Positions 3,034-59,279 of a stretch of 59,279 bases of DNA are shown in pieces. Made by a program: the position numbers and the translations under genes. The stretch's first letter is position 1; the number at the start of each line of letters is the position of its first letter. A model generated the notes under the pieces. It was not told where the DNA came from and ran no database searches. It saw only the letters and a program-made list of their open reading frames with translations. Origin of the DNA: Sumerlaeia bacterium (lineage in GTDB: Bacteria; Sumerlaeota; Sumerlaeia; SLMS01; JAHLLQ01); contig JAVJSW010000014.1 of NCBI GenBank assembly GCA_040219255.1, positions 1 through 59,279 on the forward strand. The letters run 5' to 3'.

Positions 3034-3267
3034 TTAGCCCTTGGGAACCAGGAACACGGAGATCAGGGCGTAGATGGCCAGAGCTTCGATGAAGGCGCAG
3101 CCAATGATCATCGCGATCTGGATCTTGCCGATCGCTTCGGGCTGGCGGCCCATGGCTTCCATGGCGCTGCTGATGGCCTTGCCAAGGCCCATGGCGGCTC
3201 CGAAAGCGGCGAGTGCGAGGCCCAGAGGATAGGCAAAAGCGAGAGCGGTTGCGGCATCGGTGAACAT
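3034..3267 (-). CDS. atpE: ATP synthase F0 subunit c
   Basis: 77-aa hairpin with RQPEA loop and FIEALAIY acidic residue. Confidence 0.97.
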   Translation of the reverse strand: MFTDAATALAFAYPLGLALAAFGAAMGLGKAISSAMEAMGRQPEAIGKIQIAMIIGCAFIEALAIYALISVFLVPKG

Positions 3268-3419: not shown

Positions 3420-4502
3420 TCAATGGTGATCGTCGTGGTCGTGGGGAAGCATCATCATGATGTAAATCGCCGAAAGCATGGCGAACACCAAGGCCTGAAC
3501 GGTGGACAGGATCAACGCGAGGAATAGCAGCGGGAAGTGGAGCGGAATGCCGATCCAGGTCCCGATGACTTCCAGCCCGAAGGGCCGCAGGATCGCCTGC
3601 GTCAGCATCAGGCCGAGCATCACGAAGGAGCCGAGCAGAATGTCCTTGCCCAGAATGTTACCGAAAAGACGCAGCGAAAGGGAGAGAGGCTTGGCGAGGA
3701 ACTCGGAAATCAGTTCGATCACCAGGAACAGCGGCACCAGAAGCCAGCTCACCCCCGTCGGGCTGCCCATCAGGTGATAAACGTATTTGACCGGACCGAG
3801 CTTCACCAGGCCGGTGTACAGCGTGACGAGGAAGGTGCAGATCGCCAGGCTCAACGTGATGATGAACGAGGAGGACGGCGCCTTGAAAAAGGGCACGATG
3901 CCAAAGAGGTTCATAACCAGGATCAGGAGGAAAATCGTGCCGATGTAGGGCAAGTAGGCGCGGCCGTTGTGCTCGCCCAGGATGCCCTTGGTGAAACTGT
4001 CCATCCCGCTGACGATGCCTTCGATCGTGACCTGGCCGCGGTCCGGGCGCCGGAAGGCGTCGTCGCGGCGGGCGCGGAATTGCTTGGTCAGGGAAATCAT
4101 GCCCCAGGCGAGCACGAAGGCGGCGAGGGCAAACCAGAGGTGGTTTTCCCAGGGCGCCCGGCCGAAAATCGGCAGCGGGTCCTGCAACCGGCCTTTATGC
4201 AGGGTCTTGGCGACGGTATAGGCCGTGGAGTGCTGATCCACGTCCTTTTCTTTTTCCGCCATGATTTCGTAGAAGAGCCAGGTGGCGTTCGTCAGTTCCG
4301 GCGGATGCTCGGGGTCTGCCTTCGCTTTGGCCGCGTGCGTTTCTTCGCCATGTGGATCATAGCCGTGCGTTTCTCCGCTGGCGGAGGCCACTGTTTCCAG
4401 GTCCGACGCCGGCGTGCGGACGTCCCCGGAGACGGATGCGGTTCCGGCTTGGTGGCCGTCATGAGGCGCTTGCGAGGCGTTTGTCTGAGCGTTGTCAGCC
4501 AT
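3420..4502 (-). CDS. atpB: ATP synthase F0 subunit a, with long N-terminal extension
   Basis: AKPLSLSLRLFGNI and VQALVFAMLSAIYI motifs; start chosen at MADNAQ, overlapping the upstream stop. Confidence 0.95.
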   Translation of the reverse strand: MADNAQTNASQAPHDGHQAGTASVSGDVRTPASDLETVASASGETHGYDPHGEETHAAKAKADPEHPPELTNATWLFYEIMAEKEKDVDQHSTAYTVAKTLHKGRLQDPLPIFGRAPWENHLWFALAAFVLAWGMISLTKQFRARRDDAFRRPDRGQVTIEGIVSGMDSFTKGILGEHNGRAYLPYIGTIFLLILVMNLFGIVPFFKAPSSSFIITLSLAICTFLVTLYTGLVKLGPVKYVYHLMGSPTGVSWLLVPLFLVIELISEFLAKPLSLSLRLFGNILGKDILLGSFVMLGLMLTQAILRPFGLEVIGTWIGIPLHFPLLFLALILSTVQALVFAMLSAIYIMMMLPHDHDDHH

Positions 4503-4950
4503 CCGAAGGTCTTCCCAAGAGATCTGCCCGAGCCGAGTCGAGCTTTCCTTGAATCCGGGTCCGCAAAGGCGTCCCGCTCGAATACACATCCCTCACCGTG
4601 ACAATCAGGGCCGCGACGAAAAACGTCAGGAATCCAGCGAGAAACGCCGTGATTTCCAACCCCGCCTCTATCGCGTAGAGCAACAGAAGGACGATGAGGC
4701 CTAACTTGGCCGCGACCCAGAGGAGAGCGAAAAGTCCCTGGCGCGAGGTGACGGCCAGGAGAATCTTGGCGAGAAAAAACCAGTTGAACCACCCAAAAAG
4801 GGCCGCCGCGCAGTAGCGGGCGCTCCATTCGGGCCCGATCAGCAACCACGACGCCAGCGCCATCAGAAAACTGAGCGCGGCCGTGTTCACAAACAGGGCG
4901 TCAAGGGTGCGGTTCGGCATTTCTCCCTCTACGGTCTCACTCACTGTCAT
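4495..4950 (-). CDS. atpI: ATP synthase I-like membrane protein
   Basis: Four hydrophobic segments; directly upstream of atpB. Confidence 0.7.
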   Translation of the reverse strand: MTVSETVEGEMPNRTLDALFVNTAALSFLMALASWLLIGPEWSARYCAAALFGWFNWFFLAKILLAVTSRQGLFALLWVAAKLGLIVLLLLYAIEAGLEITAFLAGFLTFFVAALIVTVRDVYSSGTPLRTRIQGKLDSARADLLGRPSDG

Positions 4951-5179
4951 CCTTGCCGGAAGCCGAATCGTCTTCTTCCTGGCTGATGCGGCTGATTTGC
5001 CGGATTATGCGAACGGTTTCCCGAACTCCGATAAACAACCCGAGGGCCAAACCGATAAAAAAGCCTAACTCCGGCTTTTCGAAAAAGTGGCCGCCAGCCC
5101 ACCGGAAAATCAACGCCGTGATGACGGGACTTCCTACAAGAACGATGGGCAAGCCGAGGGCGAGACTCGCGCCCCGCAT
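4937..5179 (-). CDS. AtpZ/AtpI-family small membrane protein
   Basis: 80 aa, two TM helices, first gene of the atp operon. Confidence 0.7.
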   Translation of the reverse strand: MRGASLALGLPIVLVGSPVITALIFRWAGGHFFEKPELGFFIGLALGLFIGVRETVRIIRQISRISQEEDDSASGKDDSE

Positions 5180-5370
5180 CGACTTTCCACGTTCTTTCCA
5201 GTGATCGGGTTCGTACCCTATGGCGACCGCTCCAGTTTGACGCCCCGTGCGGTCCGCTTCCCACGAACCTCAGCGAGTGCGCCGGAAGGGGTAGAATTGC
5301 TGGGGGGCTGGAGCAAGGGAAAAGTCGGACAAGTTCGTGATTTTTTTCACAAACCTTCCCCGCCGAACCT

Positions 5371-7467: not shown

Positions 7468-9342
7468 ATGAGTTCCACCGAAACGCTTTCCGCTCCCACT
7501 CCCACTCCCGCTCCGCTGGCCCCGATCACCGAGTCGCCCAACGAATTGACCGGTGACATCGATCTGGCGACTCCTCTGGAGATGGCGCGTCTCCTGCGCC
7601 AGAGCGACGCCCAGATCTTTTCCGGCTATGGCGGCCTGCCTTCCGTGATCGACGAACCCGTCGTCAACCACGCGGTCAACATGGCCCGCCAAACGGCCAA
7701 AGCCATCGCTGCCGGGGAAAAGGGCGCTGTCGTGATCAGCGGCGCCGGCACGAGCGGCCGCCTCGCCTGGTTCCTCAGCCGCAACTTCAACCGGCGCCTG
7801 CGCACCCTGGGCGCGGCGGAGGTCTTCCGCCCCCTCCTCGCCGGCGGCGCCCACGTGCTCGTCAAGTCCCTGGAAGGCGTCGAGGACGACCCGAAAACCG
7901 GTGTCACGGATTTGAACGCCGTCCTCAACAAAGGCGTCACCGCCGACGACGCGGCCCCGGGCGAGACGAACAAACCCGGACCCAACCTCTCCCATATCGT
8001 TTACGTCGGCATCACCTGCGGCCTGTCCGCCGCCTACACCGCCGGCCAGGTCAATTCCCTGCTCAACGACTCGCGCGCGTCGGTTGTCCTGCTGGGCTTC
8101 AACCCTCTGGATCGGGCGCGGCGCCTGACGATCGAGGGCTGGGACCGCACCTTCGCCGACATCGTGGAGGCGGGCCTGAAAGCGGCCGAGCAAGACCCGG
8201 CGCGCTTCATCCCCCTCGTTCCGGTTTACGGCCCGGAAGCCATCAAGGGTTCCACGCGCATGAAAGGCGGCAGCACGACCAAGCTGCTCCTGGAAGCGGT
8301 GTTTTCGCTGGCGATGGAAATCGCCGGCATGACGGAGAACGCCCCGGTGGACGAAGACTCGAGCGACGCCGTGCTGGTGGCCCGGCTGCGCGCCATGCTG
8401 CTTTCCTATCAGCGGGCCATCACCGCCGTTTACACCAACACCGAACAGATCGGCGAAATGATCCGTCTGGGCGGTGCGGCGCTGCGCTGCGGCGGCCAAA
8501 TCAGCTATATCGGCCGCGACACGGCCGGGTTCCTGGGCATCCTGGACGCCTCGGAATGCCCGCCCACCTTTGGCGCCCATCCCCGCGACGTGCGCGGCTA
8601 CATCCGCAGCGGCTGGCCCGAGCTGCTCGATGAAGAACGGGACTTCACCTATAAGGGCCCGGACTACGCCATCAGCCACGAGGCCTTTGAAAAGGACCGC
8701 CTCGAGGACCTGTCGCGCGGCGATTTCGTCCTCGGCATCGCCATCGGGGAAGTCGGCCCGAGTACGCTGGGCCTGATCGAAGCGGCTACCGAGTCGCGCG
8801 CCAGCGTCGCCCTGCTGCTCGTCGGCAAGCAGCGTCCGAGCAAGGAAAACCTGCCGAAAAACCTGGAGCACTTCTTCTTTGTCGAAGTACCCGAACTGGG
8901 CTTCGCGCCCGACTTCCACAACGTCGCGGAACTGGCCCTCAAGCTGTGCCTGAACGCGGTCTCCACCGGCGCCCATGTGCTGGTGGGCCGCGTCTATCAC
9001 AACCAGATGATCGACCTGCGGATTTCCAACACGAAGCTCTATCACCGGGCCATCGGCACCATCGCGCAGTTGGCCGAGACCAGCGAAGAGCTGGCCCGCG
9101 AAGCCGTTCATCGCGCCGCTTTCCGCAAGGATACGCTGAGCGCGGAAGAGCAGGACGCTCTGCCCAGCGCCATCATCAAACTGGTTGGCGACCGCTCCGG
9201 CGTGGTCCCCCTCGCACTGCTGCTCGCCATCGGCGGCACCACCGTCGAGGACGGACAGAAAGCCCTCGCCGCCGACCCGGTGGTGCGCCGCGTGGTGGAG
9301 AAGCAGCTCAAGAAAAAAGCCGAAGGCACCGCCGCGGCTTGA
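7468..9342 (+). CDS. Two-SIS-domain glucokinase regulatory protein (GKRP)-like / tandem MurQ-like protein
   Basis: PITESPNELT, SGAGTSGR, GPEAIKGSTRMKGGSTTK, LDASECPPTFG, LNAVSTGAHVLVGRVYHNQMIDLRISNTKL; 624 aa from ATG 7468. Confidence 0.9.
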   Translation: MSSTETLSAPTPTPAPLAPITESPNELTGDIDLATPLEMARLLRQSDAQIFSGYGGLPSVIDEPVVNHAVNMARQTAKAIAAGEKGAVVISGAGTSGRLAWFLSRNFNRRLRTLGAAEVFRPLLAGGAHVLVKSLEGVEDDPKTGVTDLNAVLNKGVTADDAAPGETNKPGPNLSHIVYVGITCGLSAAYTAGQVNSLLNDSRASVVLLGFNPLDRARRLTIEGWDRTFADIVEAGLKAAEQDPARFIPLVPVYGPEAIKGSTRMKGGSTTKLLLEAVFSLAMEIAGMTENAPVDEDSSDAVLVARLRAMLLSYQRAITAVYTNTEQIGEMIRLGGAALRCGGQISYIGRDTAGFLGILDASECPPTFGAHPRDVRGYIRSGWPELLDEERDFTYKGPDYAISHEAFEKDRLEDLSRGDFVLGIAIGEVGPSTLGLIEAATESRASVALLLVGKQRPSKENLPKNLEHFFFVEVPELGFAPDFHNVAELALKLCLNAVSTGAHVLVGRVYHNQMIDLRISNTKLYHRAIGTIAQLAETSEELAREAVHRAAFRKDTLSAEEQDALPSAIIKLVGDRSGVVPLALLLAIGGTTVEDGQKALAADPVVRRVVEKQLKKKAEGTAAA

Positions 9343-22488: not shown

Positions 22489-23118
22489 ATGATTCAGGAA
22501 CAAAAGTCCGAGCGGCTCAGCCGCATACTCTCCGATCTGGAGCGCGAGGGATGGTGCCACCTCCCCGGGTTTCTCGACCAGGCGGAGACGGCCGTGCTGG
22601 CCAGCCAGGCCATGGCCAGTTGGCAGGACGGCGCGTTCGAGCAGGCCGCCGTCGGCCATGGCGCCGCGCGGCAGCTTCGTCCCGAAATCCGGTCCGACTA
22701 TATCCATTGGGTCGATCCCGCCGCCGCCACCGGCGCTCTCGGCGATTACCTGAATTTTCTCGAGGAGCTTCGCCTCGGCGCCAACCAGTCCTTCTTTCTC
22801 GGACTCTTCGATTACGAGGGGCATTTCGCCCTCTATCCCGCCGGGTCGTTCTATGCGGCGCATCTGGATAACTTCCGCAATCAGAGCCGCCGCATGCTGA
22901 CGTGCCTGCTGTACTTGAACCACGACTGGGTGCCGGAGCACGGCGGCGTGTTGCGGCTGTACACACAGTGGGAGCCGGAGGCGGAGAGGGCGTTTGTGGA
23001 TATCGAGCCGCGGGGCGGCACGCTGGTGGTCTTCGCGGCGGAGCGCTTCTATCATGAGGTCCTCCCGGCCCACAGCGAACGCTTGAGCCTGACGGGTTGG
23101 CTTTGCCGGCGCGATTGA
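22489..23118 (+). CDS. 2OG-Fe(II) oxygenase (prolyl-hydroxylase/SM-20-like)
   Basis: IRSDYIHW, YAAHLD (HxD), LYLN, HEVLP, RLSLTGW. Confidence 0.9.
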   Translation: MIQEQKSERLSRILSDLEREGWCHLPGFLDQAETAVLASQAMASWQDGAFEQAAVGHGAARQLRPEIRSDYIHWVDPAAATGALGDYLNFLEELRLGANQSFFLGLFDYEGHFALYPAGSFYAAHLDNFRNQSRRMLTCLLYLNHDWVPEHGGVLRLYTQWEPEAERAFVDIEPRGGTLVVFAAERFYHEVLPAHSERLSLTGWLCRRD

Positions 23119-23127
23119 CGCGCCGGT

Positions 23128-24258
23128 TCAGGGATTGAGCGCGAGCCCGATGAGCGCCGCCGAGCCGGTGGGGGCTTCGGTGGCGATGACGTCGAAGGCG
23201 ATTTTCCAGGGCGTGGCGCCGTCGCTGGCCCAGGCCAGTTCGATTTCGATGGTTTCCCGGTCCCCGGCGGCGGCGCGCAGCAGCGTGCCCGCCGCCGCAT
23301 GGCGCCGGTGATCCGCGGGAAAGGCGCGCAGGCGCACCGTGGGCGGTTCGCGCCCGGCGGGGTGCTCGGCGTGGACGCGGGCCACGATTCGATGGAGCCC
23401 GCGCGGCAGGGGATCGAGCGGGGCCTTCGATTCCCAGAAGGCGAAGCTGGGCGCGCCGGGTCTGACCTGATGCACCCGCAGGCCCATGGTGGTGTCGGGC
23501 AGCCGGGTAAGGGTGGCGCGGGCCGGGCCGTAGATGACCTCGCCGCTCCAGTGGTCCGGGTTGCGGTTCCGGGGATGGGCCAGCTCCTCGAAGGTGCGCA
23601 CCGGATCGGGCGGTTTTCGGCGCCATCGGATCTGATCCTCCAGCCATGGCAGCATGTCTCCGCGATGGAGGCGGACGGCGAAGTTGTTGTTCCGGCCGAT
23701 GGCTTGGGCGATGCCCACGAGACGGTGGCTGTCGGCGCCATCGATGCGCCAGAGGGGCGAGCCGCTGCTGCCAAAGGCGAGGTCCATGCGCGTGTGATAG
23801 TCGGCGCCGTCGGCCTCGACGCCGCCGGTCACGTGCATTTGCACGGGCGTCCCGGCGAGAGCGGCGGCGTCGGACGGATAGCCGGCGATGGCGCCGCGGA
23901 ATCCGGACGGCGGATGGCGGCCCGGTTCGAAGGCCACGGGCGGCCCGATGTCCCGGTGAACGTGGGCGAGGCGATAGACGCCGACGTCGAACTCGGGCGT
24001 TTCGCCGCCATTGATGTAGCGGGGGTGGACCATGCGTTCGAGGGCCAGCGCGTAGCCGAAAGGGTCGCGGGGCCAGGCTTCGCGGGGGCCAAAGGCCATC
24101 CAGCCGCGCCGCGTGCCCAGATGGGCGCAGGAAATGGCCGTTTCCGGGGTCAGGAGGGAAAAGGTCCCTCCCCAGCGGGTGGCCGAACCGACGGTGCGGT
24201 GGGGCCAGGCTTCGGTGCCGGCGATGATGAGGCGGTCGTCTTTTCCAAAGATACCCAT
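23128..24258 (-). CDS. Trypsin-like serine protease with C-terminal beta domain
   Basis: IFGKDDR, SCAHL, FDVGV, GYP, GSSGSP triad motifs. Confidence 0.75.
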   Translation of the reverse strand: MGIFGKDDRLIIAGTEAWPHRTVGSATRWGGTFSLLTPETAISCAHLGTRRGWMAFGPREAWPRDPFGYALALERMVHPRYINGGETPEFDVGVYRLAHVHRDIGPPVAFEPGRHPPSGFRGAIAGYPSDAAALAGTPVQMHVTGGVEADGADYHTRMDLAFGSSGSPLWRIDGADSHRLVGIAQAIGRNNNFAVRLHRGDMLPWLEDQIRWRRKPPDPVRTFEELAHPRNRNPDHWSGEVIYGPARATLTRLPDTTMGLRVHQVRPGAPSFAFWESKAPLDPLPRGLHRIVARVHAEHPAGREPPTVRLRAFPADHRRHAAAGTLLRAAAGDRETIEIELAWASDGATPWKIAFDVIATEAPTGSAALIGLALNP

Positions 24259-24312
24259 GATGCGTGACAGACTCCTGGGGTGGGATTGGGGGAGTCTGCC
24301 GCAAGTGGTTCC

Positions 24313-52652: not shown

Positions 52653-52730
<78 letters not shown>

Positions 52731-52758
52731 TTTTTCTTCCTTGAATTTGTTAGAGTTA

Positions 52759-52795
52759 GCCTGCCGCCACAACTTGGCGGCGGCTTTCCTTTTTT
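52759..52795 (+). terminator. Intrinsic terminator-like hairpin downstream of the tRNA
   Basis: gccgcca-caact-tggcggc stem followed by a T-rich tract. Confidence 0.6.
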
Positions 52796-53004
52796 GGCGG
52801 CGTTGCAAAACTTTGCAAAACTCCGGGAGTGACCGGCCTCTACTTTTGGGGTTTGAGCACCCCGTCCTGTCGACCCGTCTATCGACCGTCGCGAGCCTAT
52901 TCCGTCCCCAATTACAGCTCGCCGAGAGAATTCTGGGCCCGGGACTTTTGCGCGTTTTTGACAAAAGCAGGAGGAGGAGTGAGGCCGCTGCTGACCATCC
53001 CAGG

Positions 53005-53049
53005 TCCGGTTGGCCCGGTTGGTCAGGTTGGTTAGGTTGGTCAGGTGGA
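53005..53049 (+). repeat. Five tandem 9-bp units ((t/c)(c/t)(a/c)ggttgg; last unit degenerate)
   Basis: tccggttgg cccggttgg tcaggttgg ttaggttgg tcaggtgga, just past the integrase stop. Confidence 0.75.
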
Positions 53050-53068
53050 TCGGGGATGCGAAGGGAAC

Positions 53069-54256
53069 TCAGTCGGATTCCTTAGCTGCTTCATGCGCCT
53101 GCAGCGCGGCTTCGATTGGACTCACCACCCGCTCCCGGAGAACGGCCATCTTCTCGTCCAGATCTTGCCGTTCACCTTTCGTTGCTGTGGTCAACCGGCA
53201 GACGTAGTGGCGCGCGGTGACGCTCTGGGGGGCGTGGCCGACGTACTGTTCCCAGACATCGTTGCGAATTCCCTTCTGGCTGGCGAAGGTGGGAAGGGCA
53301 TTGCGCAGATCTTTAGGGCTCCAATCGAGGTCCGGATTGAACTCGCGGATGGCGGAGCGTACCTGGCTGCTGTAGCCAGTATATTCTGTATAAGGGCCAC
53401 CGAGTTTGCCAACGACGACCGTGTCTTTGACGTTCTGGACCTTAGTGCGGCGTTTTCGTTCGAGTTGCAGGGCCCTCGCGCGGTGAAGAGCGTCCAGGAG
53501 GCGGGAGCAGACGGGAATGACGCGGTTGCGGTACTCGTTCTTGGTCTTGCCGGAGACTTCGATGAGACCGCGCTCGAGATCGACTTTGTCCCATGTGAGC
53601 CGGAGAGCTTCCTGGAGTTGGAGGCCAGCCAGTCCCTGGAGCGCGGGTCCGGCCTCAAGCCACCCGCGATGATCCGCAAGCCAGTCGAGAAAGTCGGCAA
53701 CGTCGGTCAGATAGACGCTCGCCGGGGGATTGACCGTCTTGGAACTGATTCCGAGATTTGTGGCGATATCAGGCAGCCCATACTCGGCGGCCATGTAGGA
53801 GGAAGTCTGGATAATTGGCTGAAGATAAAGGCGCTGAGTATTTGGAGCCTTGTCCTTGTGAAGATCTGCGTACTCTCGGATGATCGAACGGGACAGGTCT
53901 TGCCACTGGGTGGCCGAGGGATGCTTCTCGCCCAACCAATCCAGAAAACGTTCCCATGCCGAGAGCCAGTCTTTGGTGGCTTTCTCACCCCGGCGGGACC
54001 GATCAAAGGTCTCATTGGCGGCATCGACCACACTGGGGCCCAACTCCTCTTCTTCTGGATCGGGAAGCCCGGCGATCTTCAGAGCTTCGGCTTTGGCATT
54101 CTCAAGCGTATCCGCATCAAATTGCCGTCTTCGATATTTGGCGTAACTCCCGAGCCTGACTTGCCAGAGGTGTTCTCTTTTTTTGCTCTTGTACAGATTG
54201 AACTTTGGCTCTTTGAGTACAAGTGTCCATCTTTTCGACGTGTTTGGTCTTGGCAT
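53069..54256 (-). CDS. Tyrosine recombinase / phage-type integrase with atypical catalytic motifs
   Basis: AGLQLQEALRLTWDKVDL, KTKN..R.IP, KDLR, VGH....VTARHY. Confidence 0.88.
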   Translation of the reverse strand: MPRPNTSKRWTLVLKEPKFNLYKSKKREHLWQVRLGSYAKYRRRQFDADTLENAKAEALKIAGLPDPEEEELGPSVVDAANETFDRSRRGEKATKDWLSAWERFLDWLGEKHPSATQWQDLSRSIIREYADLHKDKAPNTQRLYLQPIIQTSSYMAAEYGLPDIATNLGISSKTVNPPASVYLTDVADFLDWLADHRGWLEAGPALQGLAGLQLQEALRLTWDKVDLERGLIEVSGKTKNEYRNRVIPVCSRLLDALHRARALQLERKRRTKVQNVKDTVVVGKLGGPYTEYTGYSSQVRSAIREFNPDLDWSPKDLRNALPTFASQKGIRNDVWEQYVGHAPQSVTARHYVCRLTTATKGERQDLDEKMAVLRERVVSPIEAALQAHEAAKESD

Positions 54257-54506
54257 CTTCTTCGTCCTTCGTTGTGTGTTTCTGTGGTCTTTTCTCAGAT
54301 CGTTCTCTTCCTACGCCTTCGATTGCCTGGAGCACTGTTTTCCCCAGGTAGAATCCTCCTACAGAGACCGCTCCGTGCTTTCTCAGTTCTTGCATAGTGT
54401 GGCCGCAAAAAATCTTGGTAATATCCTTGCATCGATATAGGCCATTCGGATGGATCAGAATGGCGGGAATGTGCGCGTTGCCGTCGGAAGTGCCACATTC
54501 TGTCAT
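54117..54506 (-). CDS. Putative excisionase-like small DNA-binding protein
   Basis: GAGGAG RBS, GLYRCKDITKIF...LRKHG...FYLGKTVLQAI, directly upstream of and overlapping the integrase. Confidence 0.45.
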   Translation of the reverse strand: MTECGTSDGNAHIPAILIHPNGLYRCKDITKIFCGHTMQELRKHGAVSVGGFYLGKTVLQAIEGVGRERSEKRPQKHTTKDEEDAKTKHVEKMDTCTQRAKVQSVQEQKKRTPLASQARELRQISKTAI

Positions 54507-56145
54507 GGGATTCTTCTCCTCTTCCCAATTTTTCAAAGCGGTTATAGTTGCCTAGACCTGCTGACTGAGCTGATGGCGTTCTCAGCAAAGAGAATAAGGC
54601 AATCATATCGGCGCAGGTGGATGGGAGATCGTGGTCTTGACCAAGCGACTTCGCAGGGGCTGAGGAGGTTGATGGACTTCCTCCATAATGACGTGACTTA
54701 CCAACACTCGCCAAATAATCTGAAAATTCTCTCTGCTCCCCAGTCTCAGTAAACAGAGGTGTCTCTTCGCCTTCACGTGCATCCAGCACCCGAAAGGCTA
54801 CTCTTGCTTTCTTGGCCGCTACTTCCCAAGGTTTGCTAATCCACTTGGCAACTTCTGCAGTAGCTTTCCGAAAATTCCGTTTCCCCTTTCGTACCATTCC
54901 TTCCGAGGCATCAATCATGAGTGATTTTTGCAGAACATCACCACATCTGGTCCGGATAAGCCATGAGGTCATTTGCTTCCAGAGTTTGTTGAAGTAATTG
55001 ACTGACTTCCCCGAATACTTATCGCGGAATGCATCGACAATCTGTTGTGATTCAGTCACTCCAGAAAACGTTTCAAGGAATTCGAGCAACTTGGGGCTCA
55101 TCTCAGCTTCTGGGACCAAGCCCAAATCCTGTTCGAGCTTCTCCGTCCCGATGACCTGCAGATCGTCAAGTTGCTTGAACGAGAATCGGCCTGCCTTGGC
55201 AATTTTATTGAGACCTTTGCTGTTGAGCCTGATTTCAACGCGTGTCACGTCGCCTCGAAGTTCAGAGTCAACTGAGCAGAACTCAAATCCTCTCGCCTCC
55301 AACTGTTGCCTTTTCGAGTAAAAGACGATTGAATAATCCGATCCAGGCATTGTCAGCGTTGGTATATTCTTCCATTCGGGTTTATCGCCACTTGTATTGG
55401 CCTTTAAGTTGCCGACATGACAGTTGGCCTTACGCTTTCGATTGCGGCGCATGTACCCATAGCATTCGGTGATTTCTGAATCAGATGTCTGCACCTGTGT
55501 AAAAATGTCGAGCCGCGTGATCTCTCGATTCTGAAGAGACCAATCTCTCGGAGCAAATCCGGCTTCCTGGAGTATGCTTTCCACACAGTGAAATGCGTCA
55601 TCAAGCTCCTCCTGCGAGGTGATCATCTGGCCATTATGCCCAAACAGTACTCTAGGCAGCTCAGCTTCGCAGTAGGAGTAAAACGTGCCTGTCTTCGGCT
55701 GGTAAATGCAATAGATACGCAAGCCTGAGGAGGCCTGATGACGGTACTCTCTTTGGCGCCCTTTTCTCTTACTTTGCCATCCAGGGGGACAGTGGTGGCT
55801 ATCCTCTTTCACAAAGGGGAAAATGAACCGGACTGTATCGGGTGAAAAGGTGAGTTTCGATGAGAAATCGGATGTAACAGGCATCTTGCTGGGCCTTCTC
55901 TTGAATTTCATAGAGAATAAGGCCTGGACTTCATGTGCTTTCAGCCACCCTTCGATAGTCTCGACGTCGAGACTGCCATCTTGAGGGAAAAAGTGCTGGG
56001 CGACGAACCATCGACTGTTCTTGAATATCGGATCTGTTCGAGAAAGGAGGCCCATAGCGCCAAGCTTCGAGAAGCTGCACTCCATATACGAGAGCCTCCA
56101 TCTCAATTCGATTGGCTTTGAAGCGTATTGCTCGCCCTGGGTCAC
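54295..56145 (-). CDS. Phage/plasmid rolling-circle replication initiator (gene II/X, CRI-like); true start possibly 55911
   Basis: ELPRVLFGHN, ITRLDI, IVFYSK, VTRVEIRL motifs in the expected order. Confidence 0.7.
   Translation of the reverse strand: MTQGEQYASKPIELRWRLSYMECSFSKLGAMGLLSRTDPIFKNSRWFVAQHFFPQDGSLDVETIEGWLKAHEVQALFSMKFKRRPSKMPVTSDFSSKLTFSPDTVRFIFPFVKEDSHHCPPGWQSKRKGRQREYRHQASSGLRIYCIYQPKTGTFYSYCEAELPRVLFGHNGQMITSQEELDDAFHCVESILQEAGFAPRDWSLQNREITRLDIFTQVQTSDSEITECYGYMRRNRKRKANCHVGNLKANTSGDKPEWKNIPTLTMPGSDYSIVFYSKRQQLEARGFEFCSVDSELRGDVTRVEIRLNSKGLNKIAKAGRFSFKQLDDLQVIGTEKLEQDLGLVPEAEMSPKLLEFLETFSGVTESQQIVDAFRDKYSGKSVNYFNKLWKQMTSWLIRTRCGDVLQKSLMIDASEGMVRKGKRNFRKATAEVAKWISKPWEVAAKKARVAFRVLDAREGEETPLFTETGEQREFSDYLASVGKSRHYGGSPSTSSAPAKSLGQDHDLPSTCADMIALFSLLRTPSAQSAGLGNYNRFEKLGRGEESHDRMWHFRRQRAHSRHSDPSEWPISMQGYYQDFLRPHYARTEKARSGLCRRILPGENSAPGNRRRRKRTI
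55957..55974. promoter_or_regulatory. Perfect palindrome AGTCTCGACGTCGAGACT (copy 1)
   Basis: Exact 18-bp palindrome; core repeated at 56590 and 57307. Confidence 0.75.
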
Positions 56146-56589
56146 TGGGAAGACACTTCGGTCAGGCCCCGGTCAGCAGGGACCTCAACGCACTTTCAAG
56201 TGTGTAGAAAGCGCGGGATCATTCTCACTAAACATCGGTCAACACTGCGGCCGATTCGGCAAGACACATGCTGTTTGCGAGCTCTTCAGTCATAGCGGTT
56301 CACTGCAGGTACTTTGCTCTCATGCCTTCCACTATCATCTAGCGACTGTAGATAAGGTCTATACTTGATTGAGTTCGCGTTGCGCGCCAGTGAGCCCTTG
56401 CCAATAGCAGAATGGGGAAAACCGGCCGGAAACCGCCATGAGACTGCAACTATCCTGCTCCCACAATCAGTTTTGTCAGGCAACCCATCCGCGTTCGCCT
56501 TGACCGTTAAAGACCACCAAAGAAACTTGACTCTCGAATCAACCGAGTGAAGGCTCTCGAATCTGCCCTGTAGAATCGGGAGTCAACAG

Positions 56590-56607
56590 AGTCTCGACGT
56601 CGAGACT
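56590..56607. promoter_or_regulatory. Perfect palindrome AGTCTCGACGTCGAGACT (copy 2)
   Basis: Exact copy in the Rep/PolA-like intergenic region. Confidence 0.75.
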
Positions 56608-57306
56608 GCAGGAATTTACAGAGAGCGGAGCATGTAGCTTGTCTTTCTATCGGAGTTTGGGCACGGTAGCGAAGAATCTGAAGTTCTTTAGAGCGAATAA
56701 CATTGCAATAATACATAAGAATTGGGACCGTTCAAAGGAAGACCTAGGTTCACCTTTCCGTAGGTAGAGGGTGAAACGGACGAAAGTCGGCCTCACTGTA
56801 CTCTTCAAGAGCGAAGTAGTTCAAATTCGCAACTCAGAGTTTTTCTATTCGTCGTCTCTCTGCGGTTATCATCGTCAGCCATGCACTCACGGCCAGTCGC
56901 CCGCCCTGCTCACCGCCCACCCACAATCAGTCATGCCCAGCACAGCCCGGACCGCCCATTGCCCAGAACCCGTTATTGATAGCATTCCATCTGCTTGCAT
57001 CAAGGGGAGGCCTCTTTTTTGGCTAGGTGCCATCGCCGTGCCAGGCGACTAGGTGTACAAGCCCCCCACCCTCGAAATCGAGCCTTTGGTTTTTTATGGC
57101 ATTCAATAGTGGCCGAGACGTTTCTGGACTTTTTTTCAAACTGGCCAAATCGAATTTTTCTCTTCGCGGGTCTTTGCCAATCAGGCTATCCCCTACTCCT
57201 CACGATCCATGTCCTCCCTTCCTGCCGGTATTCAAGACGATAGCTTAGTCCGAAGATCTCGGCTTTTTCAGGGAATCGTCTGCATATCGAGACTTGACCC
57301 TCGGTA

Positions 57307-57322
57307 GTCTCGACGTCGAGAC
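57307..57322. promoter_or_regulatory. Perfect palindrome GTCTCGACGTCGAGAC (copy 3)
   Basis: 16-bp core 20 bp upstream of the PolA-like ORF; extra half-site tcgagact at 57287-57294. Confidence 0.75.
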
Positions 57323-57342
57323 AAGTAGCCAATAGTCCTCGT

Positions 57343-59142
57343 GTGGCACTTTGGGCACGCCTCAAAGCCTTCGCAGGCGGTTCGCCTTTCACAAAGCCCA
57401 AGTCGATGGCTGGATTCTCCCTCCAAATCATCAGCCAGCGTTATACGCCCTGCATTAGGCTGCACAATTCTGGGAGAAGAGGAAGATCAACCTGTTTGGA
57501 TTCAGCTATGCGTGAGGCTCCTCAAAGTGGGAAAATGGTTGGTTGGAAAATCCCCAAGAACAGCCCCATCCCGGACGCCTTCCCCGTTCCCGTAGCGACC
57601 GCGAGGATCCTCCTTGGGCGAATGCCTGTCCTATCCGCGGAAGGCCCCCTCAATCGCTCAGAGAGAAGGTTCTTGTTCTGCGTGGCCTTCTCTCAGTTTT
57701 CCTTCTTCCCTCGAAGTCCTGAGAACACCACCCTCTCTATACCTTACCAGCAATATGGGCGAGGGCTTCGAAGCAAGCTTTCACGATTGAGAAGGATGGG
57801 ATTGCTGGAGTTGTCGGACTACGTTCCTCCAGCTGATGGAATAGAGGGAAGGTGTACCGAAGCATGGTGTAGCAATCAAGTGATCGAAAGTTTTCGAATT
57901 GCTTTTGAAGTCTTCTTGGACCGGGCCGAAACTGCTGAGATCTTCGTCGATCTTCTTGATTGCGGGAACTGGATTCACACTCCGCCCAGGATAAAGCACA
58001 AGCCAGGAGATCGACCATCATCTTACAATGACAAACCCCTGTTGAGGGAGGTGCTTCGATTCTGGCAAGATGTTGGAGGCATTGCCAATGCCGATCAAAT
58101 TACACGATGGCTGGACCGATCGCGGGAGGAGATTTCGGAGCTCAAGCGAGAGGGGAAACCCGAGGCAGCTGAGGCGCGCCGGGCCAAATATCTCGGCGAT
58201 CTATGCCAAGCCTATCAAATTCAGGTCCAGATGACCCGTAGATCGGGGCACGAGATCCACTATAGACACAGCCACCGCGTCCAGTCGTCCGGAAGGTTGT
58301 ACGAACCCGGTCTGCAGGCCTGCTCAAATCTTATGAAGGACTTTGCCTTCTCTTTGAGCGATCGGGAAATTTACAACTACGATCTCAAGGATTCGCAGTT
58401 GCGTATCCTGTTGCGGGTCATCGATATCGTCAATAGTCTGTCGCCAGGCGAGACCTCGAAAATCGACAAGAGCGTTCTTCAAGAGTATCTCGAAAGAGAC
58501 CGGAGTGAGCATATGCAGGCCGCAGGTCTGAATCCCGACTTTCGCAAAGACGTCAAACTCTACAAGAGAGTCGTCACAAGCCTGCAATTTGGCGCTCCCC
58601 TTCCTGGGCGTTTTTCGGTCGATGTCCCGTCCATTCAGGATCTCAGAAAAGGAAGAACCTCGGCAATCACTTCGGCAATTCTGCTCCACTCAAACCGGCG
58701 TACTTGGCGGGCGATAGAAATCTGGAAGGATTTGAAGCCAATCGTTGAGCCCTTGGCCAGAACCGTCTTCAAGCCGCTTCGCGCCGCTTTGAGAAAAGAA
58801 CTACCCAGGTATCGCAATGAGGAGTTCGACGTATTGCTTCAGGTCAAAAGCGGCCGAGGTGGCAAGGTCGTAAGAAACGCCTGTGGCTGCACGATGCGGA
58901 TTTCGAACAATTCCCTGAGCGCCGCAGAGGGCCGGCGTGTTCTCGCCTTCTTGACCCAAGGGGCCGAGGCAGCCCTTATCCACGGCATTACGCTCCATTG
59001 CGCGGAGCTCGATGGCGTCTCTCCGCTCTCCAACCAACACGACGGACTGGTCACCGACGGCGAGATTCCTGAGGATGTCATTGCGGAAGAGGCTCAGCGC
59101 CTTGGGCTGGAAGAGGTTGTTTTGCGGCACAAGGGGTTCTAG
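57343..59142 (+). CDS. Divergent family-A polymerase-like protein without recognisable exonuclease domain (start uncertain)
   Basis: SSGRLY...LQ, motif A YDLKDSQLRIL, motif B YKRVVTSLQFGA, TQGAEA, motif C NQHDGLV. Confidence 0.7.
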   Translation: MALWARLKAFAGGSPFTKPKSMAGFSLQIISQRYTPCIRLHNSGRRGRSTCLDSAMREAPQSGKMVGWKIPKNSPIPDAFPVPVATARILLGRMPVLSAEGPLNRSERRFLFCVAFSQFSFFPRSPENTTLSIPYQQYGRGLRSKLSRLRRMGLLELSDYVPPADGIEGRCTEAWCSNQVIESFRIAFEVFLDRAETAEIFVDLLDCGNWIHTPPRIKHKPGDRPSSYNDKPLLREVLRFWQDVGGIANADQITRWLDRSREEISELKREGKPEAAEARRAKYLGDLCQAYQIQVQMTRRSGHEIHYRHSHRVQSSGRLYEPGLQACSNLMKDFAFSLSDREIYNYDLKDSQLRILLRVIDIVNSLSPGETSKIDKSVLQEYLERDRSEHMQAAGLNPDFRKDVKLYKRVVTSLQFGAPLPGRFSVDVPSIQDLRKGRTSAITSAILLHSNRRTWRAIEIWKDLKPIVEPLARTVFKPLRAALRKELPRYRNEEFDVLLQVKSGRGGKVVRNACGCTMRISNNSLSAAEGRRVLAFLTQGAEAALIHGITLHCAELDGVSPLSNQHDGLVTDGEIPEDVIAEEAQRLGLEEVVLRHKGF

Positions 59143-59279
59143 GCTTTGTCTGACAAAAGGATTTTGAGGAAAGTGAGGACGAATGCGAGCTGAATCATGG
59201 CGACGAAATTGGCGCCCAGCTTTTCGTACCTGGTTGCGATGCGGCGGTTCTCTTTGAGGTGTCCGTTGCGGCGCTCGAC
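59139..59279 (-). mobile_element. 3' end of an IS5-family transposase and IS terminus
   Basis: VERRNGHLKENRRIATRYEKLGANFVAMIQLA...SDKA*; the stop lies in a CTAG shared with the PolA-like stop. Confidence 0.85.

Follow-up and report, generated by a model that had tools for sequence, protein, structure and literature searches.

A probable mosaic integrative island at a tRNA-Arg gene that encodes a rolling-circle initiator-like protein and a TV-Pol-family polymerase

The window analyzed here, 59,279 nucleotides of a Sumerlaeia bacterium, is the whole of one contig (C14), and its right end carries foreign-looking DNA next to a tRNA-Arg gene. On balance, we regard this DNA as a mosaic integrative island, damaged by insertion sequences, in which an integrase-Rep module and a TV-Pol module were probably brought together. 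The first module would consist of a tyrosine integrase and a divergent nicking initiator of the Rep_trans/Phage_CRI superfamily, and the second of a minimal family-A polymerase of the TV-Pol (Transposon-Virus polymerase) family, with an extra N-terminal domain as in the integrase-linked subset of that family. As originally predicted, an initiator-like protein of the rolling-circle type and a minimal family-A polymerase are encoded in one element.

The integration target is a single tRNA-Arg gene (anticodon ACG) at 52654-52730 on the plus strand, identified with ARAGORN and by Rfam RF00005 (65.1 bits). Exact-match extension and blastn-short located attL at 52684-52731, a 48-nt direct repeat made up of the 3' part of the tRNA gene plus 1 nt. 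An identical copy in the right orientation lies on a second contig of the assembly (C24:3098-3145; 47/47 and 48/48 in blastn-short) and, judged by its sequence, is a plausible attR. The suggestion that an integrative element sits at this tRNA, and that a second copy of the tRNA 3' end should be sought on another contig, was thus borne out. Between the two repeats the visible parts of the island are C14:52732-59279 and C24:1-3097, so that the Rep-like and polymerase genes both fall between attL and the candidate attR, as would be expected for one element. The GC content of 54000-59000 is 0.48-0.55, below that of the upstream DNA (0.60-0.71) and of the whole genome (0.636), in agreement with the lower GC noted at the outset. 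The genes themselves differ (integrase 0.57, Rep core 0.48, polymerase 0.54), which speaks against a single mosaic element working as a unit.

At least two IS elements interrupt the island, whose assembly is incomplete. An IS5-family transposase gene is represented by its 3' end (59139-59279, minus strand; NF033580, E 9.9e-10; PF13586), which reaches from the polymerase stop codon to the end of contig C14; this fragment is 99.3% identical to C30:158-297. The ends of C14 and C24 at their unassembled joint carry different IS elements. This copy of the island may have lost its mobility, given its two IS insertions. On C24 there are also the remnant of an integrase and another att-like copy in inverted orientation, so the attR there could be that of an older neighbouring island; paralogous ORFs flank this attR on both sides.

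The first gene after the tRNA encodes a tyrosine recombinase of 395 aa (53069-54256, minus strand), which matched PF00589 (E 4.2e-10; 40.1 bits against a cut-off of 27.1) and the integrase family phrog_1 (E 8.5e-24), confirming the integrase call. The neighbouring 139-aa ORF (54117-54536, minus strand) overlaps the 3' end of the Rep-like ORF and the 5' end of the integrase gene. It had been called Xis-like, a label that we found unsupported: no Pfam, PHROG or NCBIfam family matched, hhalign gave a probability of 0.5% against four HTH_17 proteins, and the best Atlas score was 0.76. Its codon-position GC (0.54/0.41/0.53) fits coding in its frame, and this pattern is the sole evidence for preferring that frame over the overlapping Rep frame.

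The Rep-like ORF (P0003, 596 aa; 54298-56085, minus strand) is a gene call within a long ORF at 54295-56145 on the same strand, and its catalytic-domain-like part spans approximately residues 60-400 (about 54900-55911). It contains the motifs ELPRVLFGHNG (from residue 142), ITRLDIF (189), VFYSKRQQ (254) and TRVEIRL (281), with Tyr256 of VFYSKRQQ as the candidate catalytic tyrosine. In comparisons with clusters labelled PF05144, which are its closest labelled look-alikes in the Atlas, feature similarity was 0.93 and structural TM 0.55-0.64 by row but only 0.36-0.39 by query. BLASTP linked it to a PF05144-positive protein (E 2e-8), and hhalign gave E 2.1e-4 over 181 columns with a probability of 46%. 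The profile of that BLASTP partner in turn matches the solved Rep structures 4CIJ, 4CWE and 4CWC, and the motifs of the ORF are in register with IRIYNKKQERK and WRVEIELK of solved RepDE (4CWE). The link to Rep_trans/Phage_CRI is thus transitive and weak, and the remote but consistent likeness suggests a very divergent rolling-circle-type initiator of this superfamily. The gpII/X-like Rep originally proposed therefore stands as a remote relationship seen by Atlas, BLASTP, hhalign and motifs, whereas no Pfam or other curated model is passed by the ORF. A six-frame search of the genome for PF05144 and PF02486 gave no match even at E <= 10, and a word-seeded search of a 5.8-billion-protein collection yielded no homologues of the ORF.

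With Rep_trans (PF02486; pT181-family RepC/RepD; 4CIJ, 4CWC, 4CWE) and Phage_CRI (PF05144; filamentous phage gpII) initiators, the ORF shares the order and register of three motifs (T-R-x-D, [IVF]-Y-[DNS]-K and R-x-E-x-x-L), the approximate size of the catalytic part, and an adjoining integrase, as in the related genome G045. Unlike them, it is 596 aa long instead of about 280-420 aa, with approximately 200 extra residues at the C-terminus. Over these last ~200 codons the coding GC periodicity is lost and another ORF overlaps, so the gene may be decaying.

Between the Rep-like ORF and the longest polymerase ORF lie about 1.26 kb (56086-57342), close to the 1.2 kb of non-coding DNA first described. 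With 57535 or 57622 as the most likely polymerase start, the gene-free stretch is probably 1.45-1.5 kb. In this divergent intergenic region (56086-57534), Pfam and Rfam scans recognized no gene: none of 11 small ORFs gave a Pfam match better than E 0.085, and no Rfam family was found. The region presumably holds promoters and an origin. An 18-bp perfect palindrome, AGTCTCGACGTCGAGACT, occurs at the 5' end of the Rep-like ORF, either inside it or immediately before it (55957-55974), in the middle of the region (56590-56607) and ahead of the polymerase ORF (57305-57322, one mismatch), with a degenerate copy at 57275-57294. That the same palindrome precedes both genes favors one element. However, the palindrome has three further copies on contig C8, in a low-GC islet unrelated to the island, and therefore ties Rep and polymerase to no regulon of their own. 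Comparison with M13 (V00604) revealed a motif resembling the core of its (+) origin at 57098-57145 on the plus strand (TTCAATAGTGG, a gap, then TGGACTTTTTTTCAAACTGG), occurring once in the 5.35-Mb genome. This motif was chosen post hoc and is a lead only; its alignment score was equalled by 8/500 and 31/1000 shuffles and is not significant, and no replication origin was identified in the island.

The polymerase gene (57343-59142, plus strand) was characterized by homologue alignment, an AF2 model, Foldseek/VIA searches and profile comparison. The longest ORF has 599 aa and the gene caller starts at 57811 (P0001, 443 aa); the N-terminal domain aligns upstream of this called start, making 57535 or 57622 the likely start. 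Homologues numbered 384 at E <= 1e-3. Across an alignment of 70 sequences the GR, D, K and HDG residues are invariant (G161, R162, D191, K252, D411 and G412 in P0001), and none of the 70 aligned homologues matched a Pfam polymerase family. The AF2 model built from these homologues (pLDDT 87.3, pTM 0.88) retrieved family-A DNA polymerases in 50/50 Foldseek matches listed and 50/50 VIA entries listed (Z 15-18), with 5dkt as the best structural match (Z 18.3, rmsd 4.1, 312 residues aligned). The PolA-like gene of the original prediction is therefore real, and its modelled product has a family-A polymerase fold. All invariant residues are intact in the island protein and the C-terminus is complete, with the K-x-F ending of its homologues.

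The original prediction had not assigned the combination to a named class, but its polymerase is a member of the TV-Pol family described by Iyer, Abhiman and Aravind in 2008 (Biol Direct 3:39, PMC2579912). The homologue profile matched Microcystis phage Ma-LMM01 at MAP_030 (E 2.8e-36), the single match in that phage and an ORF adjoining two transposase genes, and the same paper names Ma-LMM01 as a phage carrying a TV-Pol element. TV-Pols, their link to integrases and their proposed primase-polymerase role are thus already in print. They are described there as minimal family-A polymerases of small mobile elements, found beside lambda-type integrases or resolvases. Like them, the island protein is a minimal core without exonuclease domains, with the invariant GR hairpin residue, two palm aspartates and the fingers lysine. 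It matches the subset with an extra N-terminal helical domain, which is linked to lambda-type integrases, resolvases or transposases, and an integrase lies within the same small island, here at a tRNA. In our searches a recombinase was found near the polymerase homologue at 10/20 loci by Pfam scan, as well as in the related genomes G035 and G036 and on contig C41 of the same genome; homologues elsewhere adjoin tyrosine or serine recombinases, HTH_17 and Rha/KilAC-type genes. The partners given in the Results and discussion of PMC2579912 are D5-like helicases, recombinases, transposases and Bro-N/KilA-C proteins, with no rolling-circle initiator among them, although its supplement may list further neighbours. 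The island differs in having a Rep_trans/CRI-like gene and in lacking a helicase.

Casposons, pipolins and polintons, which like the island are integrative and carry their own DNA polymerase gene, use family-B polymerases, unlike the family-A fold found here. Closer in this respect are the CcPol-MP or PolA-SSB primases of SCCmec and other Bacillota elements (Bebel et al. 2020, PMC7581432; Rice 2023, PMC10061031), integrative elements that also encode a family-A polymerase domain. Priming has been proposed for TV-Pols (PMC2579912); among the sources cited here, the distant CcPol-MP complex, which makes primers de novo (PMC7581432), is the only biochemical evidence that family-A enzymes of integrative elements do so. 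CcPol-MP depends on a small OB-fold protein whose gene follows immediately downstream, where the island has the IS5 fragment. A helicase and serine recombinases are associated with CcPol-MP, whereas the island shows no helicase and a tyrosine integrase.

In the proposed mechanism, the island would leave the chromosome as a circle excised by the integrase. An origin within the 1.4-kb intergenic region would be nicked by Rep through the tyrosine of VFYSKR, and rolling-circle synthesis would be carried out by the host replisome and a host helicase. By analogy, the TV-Pol may act as the island's own primase-polymerase, using the single strand that is displaced as the template on which to start its complement.

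A Rep-like gene was found beside the polymerase at 0/61 other TV-Pol loci, so there is no comparative support for the two working together. Checking for co-occurrence elsewhere had been part of the original prediction, and by that measure the count speaks against a class. A recurring combination was not found: the related genome G045 has Int-HTH_17-Rep without TV-Pol, while G035, G036 and C41 have tRNA-Int-TV-Pol without Rep. These observations also fit a less probable alternative, in which a tRNA hot spot received an Int-(Xis)-Rep island and a TV-Pol element or its remnant, by stacking or by recombination; the two would not cooperate, and the copy would be decaying. The unequal GC, the two IS insertions, the Rep tail without coding periodicity and the stacked remnants at the same att on C24 (integrase fragment, inverted att copy, paralogous ORFs around attR) agree with it. 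Against it, no att remnant longer than 9 nt was found between the integrase and the end of C14, the polymerase is intact in its invariant residues and C-terminus, the Rep-like ORF is open across 596 codons, and both genes are preceded by the shared palindrome.

Since Rep_trans proteins serve ICEs and IMEs as relaxases, the Rep-like protein could also be a MOB_T-type relaxase. Plasmid primases that act in the recipient are known, and TV-Pol would likewise prime the complement of the transferred strand there, with the island as an integrative mobilizable element using a helper's mating pore. The Rep_trans likeness and the presence of an integrase without conjugation genes are compatible with this reading, and Rep_trans-family relaxases of ICEs and IMEs have been published; we nevertheless consider it improbable, as those MOB_T relaxases are described in Firmicutes (PMC6499999, PMC7563843, PMC5704250) and the nearest labelled look-alikes are Phage_CRI clusters and not relaxases.

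The visible ORFs contained no capsid, conjugation or helicase family in Pfam, PHROG and NCBIfam scans, as had been noted for capsid and conjugation genes. That they border an ordinary prophage or ICE with its bulk in the unassembled gap is very improbable: the island is indeed split between two or more contigs, both breaks being marked by IS elements, and an N-terminally cut 597-aa ORF on C24 weakly resembles Peptidase_G2 (tail-spike chaperone; E 2.8e-4, below cut-off), but none of three C24 ORFs tested had a PHROG match, scans of the visible 9.6 kb gave no match to a capsid, terminase, portal or T4SS family, and the TV-Pol islands of relatives are compact, a few kb spanning tRNA, integrase and polymerase.

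We return to the mosaic island. Its kind of polymerase has been known since 2008. The pairing with an initiator, seen at none of the 61 other TV-Pol loci, looks like a one-off modular recombination of two known modules and not a conserved class.

The genome assembly comprises 83 contigs with 5.35 Mb and a GC content of 63.6%, and the window is all of contig C14. The only tRNA gene that ARAGORN found in it was a tRNA-Arg(ACG) at 52654-52730 on the forward strand, with which Rfam concurred. Downstream of this gene the GC fraction dropped from 0.60-0.71 to 0.48-0.55. The original prediction had described an integrative element at this site and had proposed looking for an attR copy of the tRNA 3' end on the adjacent contig. 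An exact copy of C14:52684-52731, consisting of the final 47 nt of the tRNA plus 1 base, was found on contig C24 at 3098-3145, in the same orientation and without the tRNA 5' half. This 48-nt repeat plausibly represents an attL/attR pair, in which case the visible island would consist of C14:52732-59279 and C24:1-3097. A tyrosine recombinase gene (53069-54256, reverse strand; PF00589, E 4.2e-10; phrog_1, E 8.5e-24), the tRNA-Arg target and the repeat on C24 all agree with the integrative nature that had been proposed.

Beyond the candidate attR, C24 carries an integrase C-terminal remnant (3555-4016; PF00589, E 7.4e-6), a second, inverted att-like copy (4359-4426; 92.6% identity over 68 nt, including 20 nt similar to the left end of the island) and a paralogue (4807-5289) of the 248-aa ORF of the island itself (2031-2777). 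C24:3098-5289 is a pile of island remnants at one att, and because the locus is such a stacking site the assignment of attR is plausible and not certain. A search for an internal att remnant within the C14 part gave no match above 9 nt. Contig C14 breaks off within a transposase gene of the IS5 family, of which it has the 3' end (59139-59279; NF033580, E 9.9e-10); the sole other copy in the genome is at C30:158-297. The first ~141 nt of C24 are common to about 20 contig ends, and on contig C19 this repeat continues into an ORF that, judged by eye, resembles an IS transposase helper. Since C14 and C24 end in different IS, the gap between them contains two distinct IS or more and may contain further DNA.

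Two further observations concern these contigs. The right part of the island holds a 597-aa ORF (C24:110-1903) that starts inside the multi-copy IS end and is probably cut at its N-terminus; it gave a weak match, under the cut-off, to Peptidase_G2 (tail-spike intramolecular chaperone; E 2.8e-4) and no PHROG match. At the other end of the window, blastn matched positions 1-242 to the reverse complement of the same stretch at 96.7%; they form a long hairpin-like inverted duplication that is possibly an assembly artefact.

The polymerase ORF spans 57343-59142 on the forward strand in its longest version (599 aa), and the gene-caller version has 443 aa. The 599-aa ORF gave no match in Pfam, PHROG or NCBIfam, and no exonuclease family appeared in the Pfam scan. 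A word-seeded search recovered one homologue; an exhaustive phmmer search of 1.84 billion cluster representatives recovered 384 at E <= 1e-3, with 111 at E <= 1e-10. Seventy of the 384, this protein among them, were aligned, and residues are numbered here by the 443-aa protein. No Pfam polymerase family was found in any of the 70 sequences, and hmmsearch of their profile against PDB sequences returned two matches at E <= 1, neither of them a polymerase. As HMMER found no polymerase link, the family-A assignment rests on fold and motifs. Invariant in the alignment were G161 and R162 (SSGRL), D191 (NYDLKDSQLR), K252, N356, Q383, E386, and D411 and G412 (NQHDG), with G261 nearly so. We take these residues to be the TxxGR, A, B and C motifs of family-A polymerases. 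The protein also reads R245-K-D-V-K249, which leaves K252 and K249 as candidates for the fingers-motif lysine. Motif A (DLKDSQLR) contains a nearly invariant glutamine, Q196, encoded at window position 58396, which by alignment to DYSQIELR of Klenow presumably occupies the position of the steric-gate glutamate; a glutamine at this putative site could bear on sugar selectivity (dNTP vs NTP).

A single-sequence AF2 model of the polymerase was unusable (pLDDT 37), and the model built by AlphaFold2 with the alignment was used instead (pLDDT 87.3, pTM 0.88). All 50 matches listed by Foldseek against PDB were family-A DNA polymerases (best E 1.5e-6). The best 50 VIA-align matches were likewise all family-A enzymes, including apicoplast Pol, Klenow, Pol theta, T7 DNA polymerase, Bst and Taq; the best was 5dkt (Z 18.3, rmsd 4.1, 312 residues aligned), and Z was still 14.9 at rank 50. 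Residues ~60-443 of the model superposed only on family-A polymerase domains, over ~300-330 aligned residues. In a viral structure library, the best matches were uncharacterised phage proteins of 400-620 aa, followed by phage Pol I, with a virophage (Zamilon) replication protein at rank 50. No match was obtained by tblastn against phages, and a single partial one, on Calothrix plasmid AP018296, against plasmids. The C-terminus of the protein is complete, ending in K-G-F where its homologues have K-P-F. The stop codon is supplied by the IS5, which begins there and thus hides the native downstream gene. The N-terminal domain of the homologues aligned with residues encoded from ~57649, upstream of the called start, and the most likely start is 57535 or 57622.

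The TV-Pol family was defined by Iyer, Abhiman and Aravind in 2008 (PMC2579912). The available part of that paper describes minimal family-A polymerases that lack nuclease domains and whose conserved features are a hairpin with an Arg, two Asp in the palm and the fingers motif RxxxK, the Arg ahead of the palm being absolutely conserved. It proposes that they act as primase-polymerases. It also describes a subset with an extra N-terminal helical domain, found in small mobile elements and accompanied by a resolvase, a lambda-type integrase or a transposase (PMC2579912). The island polymerase likewise has a family-A thumb, palm and fingers core without an exonuclease domain, and G161, R162, D191 and D411 are invariant among its aligned homologues. 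It has the N-terminal domain of the subset, as aligned to the homologues, and an integrase lies in the same island. The island polymerase is a TV-Pol. Microcystis phage Ma-LMM01 is named as host of a TV-Pol element in the same part of the paper (PMC2579912), and the profile of the homologues of the island polymerase matched exactly one ORF of that phage (AB231700), MAP_030 at 22746-24266 (E 2.8e-36), which adjoins two annotated transposases.

The surroundings of other TV-Pol genes were similar in kind. A tyrosine or serine recombinase was present in 10 of the 20 homologue loci that were Pfam-scanned (145 ORFs, from 20 of 24 loci), and others of the 20 had HTH_17, Rha/KilAC or restriction-modification genes. 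In a phylum sample of 75 species genomes, three were positive for the TV-Pol profile, that of the window included; in the other two the order was tRNA-Gly, integrase and polymerase (G035) and tRNA-Gly, integrase, HTH_17 gene and polymerase (G036). The genome of the window has a second TV-Pol, a 655-aa ORF on contig C41 (16350-17882, loci L038 and L041; profile E 2.6e-32), in a low-GC stretch that also contains two tyrosine integrases as well as an ORF matching an AEP-TOTE primase domain (E 6e-7). According to the accessible part of PMC7581432, CcPol-MP is the only proposed TV-Pol that has been biochemically tested; this distant relative from SCCmec requires a small partner protein for de novo priming (PMC7581432; PMC10061031, in part). 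In CcPol-MP and PolA-SSB systems an OB-fold partner lies directly downstream and a helicase is linked, whereas here IS5 occupies that position, and no helicase families were found in the visible island. Helicases are among the partners named in the available part of PMC2579912, and the island has a rolling-circle-type initiator in their place.

This initiator is a Rep-like ORF of 596 aa, called at 54298-56085 on the reverse strand. The cut-off of no curated family model was reached: neither the whole protein nor its 539-aa core matched PF02486 or PF05144 at E <= 0.1 or E <= 1, and a six-frame PF05144 search of the genome gave no candidate. Word-seeded searches found only the protein itself among 8000 candidates scored at near lengths and no homologue among 329 at shorter lengths; phmmer of the core against PDB gave nothing at E <= 10. 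Across the phylum, PF05144 was detected in 1 of 75 genomes, and the Rep-like protein as query gave two weak matches besides its own locus. The Atlas feature score of the protein was 0.93, with 21 of 30 feature matches carrying the label set of PF05144-labelled clusters, and its low-confidence Atlas model (pLDDT 0.54) gave TM values of 0.55-0.64 by row and 0.36-0.39 by query over residues ~60-410.

Closer evidence came from a 282-aa protein of G045, a genome of the same order. This protein passed the cut-off of PF05144 (25.2 bits, cut-off 21.7), nearly passed that of PF02486 (28.6 bits vs 29.6) and matched phrog_453, a replication initiation protein. Residues 100-199 of the Rep-like protein matched it by BLASTP (E 2e-8), and hhalign of the core with the PF05144-positive proteins of G045 and G059 gave E 2.1e-4 (probability 46%) across 181 columns, in which four blocks were in register. 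Neither the core nor the G045 protein had a tblastn match in phages. The two-protein profile matched the solved Rep_trans structures 4CIJ (E 1.7e-7), 4CWE and 4CWC, with I-Y-D-K aligned to RIYNKKQERK and R-F-E-L to WRVEIELK of 4CWE; VFYSKRQQ and TRVEIRL of the Rep-like protein in turn aligned with VAIYDKGKE and LRFELRL of the G045 protein. The tyrosine of the I-Y-[ND]-K-type motif, VFYSKRQQ in the Rep-like protein, is presumably the catalytic one, and TRVEIRL corresponds to the conserved R-x-E-x-x-L strand. This evidence is indirect and agrees across tools, suggesting that the protein is related to Rep_trans/Phage_CRI initiators. A three-motif pattern written post hoc occurred, among 1258 translations, only in the Rep-like proteins from which it came; its specificity backs the negative co-occurrence screen and is not independent support for the Rep relation.

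The last ~200 Rep codons (54298-54900) did not show the GC2-low/GC3-high pattern of the other coding regions of the island, and the final ~80 overlap a 139-aa ORF (54117-54536, reverse strand) in another frame. Possible explanations are a disordered tail, read-through and decay following a frameshift; the composition and overlap of these codons count against full Rep function. The frame of the 139-aa ORF shows the GC1/GC2/GC3 pattern of the confident genes of the island, which the overlapping Rep frame lacks; with this pattern present, the ORF may be a genuine small gene. Pfam, PHROGs and NCBIfam gave no match for it, the Atlas scored it at 0.76 at best, and hhalign against four HTH_17 proteins from TV-Pol loci gave a probability of 0.5%. 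The integrase, the Rep-like gene and the polymerase-like gene were as read in the original prediction; the "Xis-like" label of the 139-aa ORF was not supported.

In the region between the divergent Rep and polymerase genes (56086-57534), Rfam gave no family and none of the small ORFs was Pfam-positive. A perfect palindrome of 18 bp, AGTCTCGACGTCGAGACT, stands at 55957-55974 and 56590-56607, and with one mismatch at 57305-57322. Both genes have copies on their upstream side, and the sequences that flank the copies are dissimilar. Elsewhere in the 5.35-Mb genome it was found, with up to two mismatches, only three times, at 8668, 10000 and 11257 of contig C8 (L028), in a 3-kb low-GC islet with genes unrelated to the island. 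All copies sit in intergenic, promoter-like places, and the palindrome is probably the operator of some regulator. The C8 islet, which adjoins a CRISPR-associated (Cas_NE0113) gene and a DEAD-box/RecQ-like helicase gene, codes for a poly-gamma-glutamate hydrolase-like protein; three further ORFs in it had no family match. A stretch at 57098-57145, TTCAATAGTGG...CAAACTGG (also written TTCAATAGTGG...TGGACTTTTTTTCAAACTGG), resembles the core of the M13 (+)-origin (V00604). Its alignment score was equalled in 8 of 500 and 31 of 1000 shuffles; the likeness is not significant and serves as a lead only.

We then compared the pairing of Rep and TV-Pol with 61 other TV-Pol loci (24 from species genomes, 3 from the phylum, 28 metagenomic and 6 viral), the search in species genomes being run with a 12-sequence polymerase alignment. 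A few of these duplicate one record, and 16 of the 58 loci fetched are shorter than 4 kb. Co-occurrence of the two genes elsewhere, the test set in the original prediction, was not borne out: a Rep-like gene was detected at 0 of the 61 loci by BLASTP with Rep or by phmmer, and neither the small Rep profile nor the motif pattern revealed one. Neither PF05144 nor PF02486 was found among the 145 + 23 Pfam-scanned ORFs. Conversely, the G045 island (contig C4, L077, 5331-16955) contains an integrase, a 225-aa ORF, an HTH_17 excisionase-like gene, the Rep_trans/Phage_CRI initiator and a 150-aa ORF, followed by a sigma-54 activator and a complete type I restriction-modification system. By its gene content this is an Int-Xis-Rep backbone without the polymerase, and the TV-Pol profile had no match in the whole G045 genome. 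A Rep island without TV-Pol and 61 TV-Pol loci without Rep indicate that the modules are separable. The pairing is unique so far, and a literature search found no paper treating TV-Pol together with rolling-circle replication.

The comparative evidence points to a chance mosaic of Rep and TV-Pol. As for how the genes might act, the most likely course by analogy with their families would be that the island first excises, that Rep nicks it and host enzymes carry out rolling-circle copying, and that the TV-Pol primes the complementary strand. It is improbable, in our estimate, that the island is a self-contained rolling-circle replicon in which a Rep_trans/CRI-type nickase and a TV-Pol primase-polymerase form a joint replication module, with Rep providing a 3'-OH that the TV-Pol extends, or the TV-Pol priming the displaced strand. 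Of the features of an integrative mobilizable element with a Rep_trans (MOB_T) relaxase, which would also have an oriT and depend on a helper T4SS, the island has the integrase and the likeness to Rep_trans. Casposons, pipolins and polintons have a family-B DNA polymerase, whereas the island polymerase has a family-A fold. An inovirus prophage is not supported by the 9.6 kb seen on either side of the unassembled gap between C14 and C24, in which no coat, Zot-like assembly ATPase or ssDNA-binding gene was found beside the gpII-like gene.

If a joint replication module did exist, the family-B self-synthesising elements would gain their first family-A counterpart in this island, which would also be the first rolling-circle element with its own complementary-strand primase; cooperation of Rep and TV-Pol would explain a rolling-circle element without a host-primed single-strand origin. 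A primase-polymerase role in small mobile elements has been proposed for TV-Pols since 2008, in the available part of the defining paper (PMC2579912), and the link of such a polymerase with an integrase is already published; the Rep partner is new and is a single example. The island adds a TV-Pol member from a poorly sampled phylum, with a neighbour of a type unreported for this family, a rolling-circle-type initiator. Its main value lies in the correct annotation of three unannotated genes and in a concrete, testable pair of enzymes.
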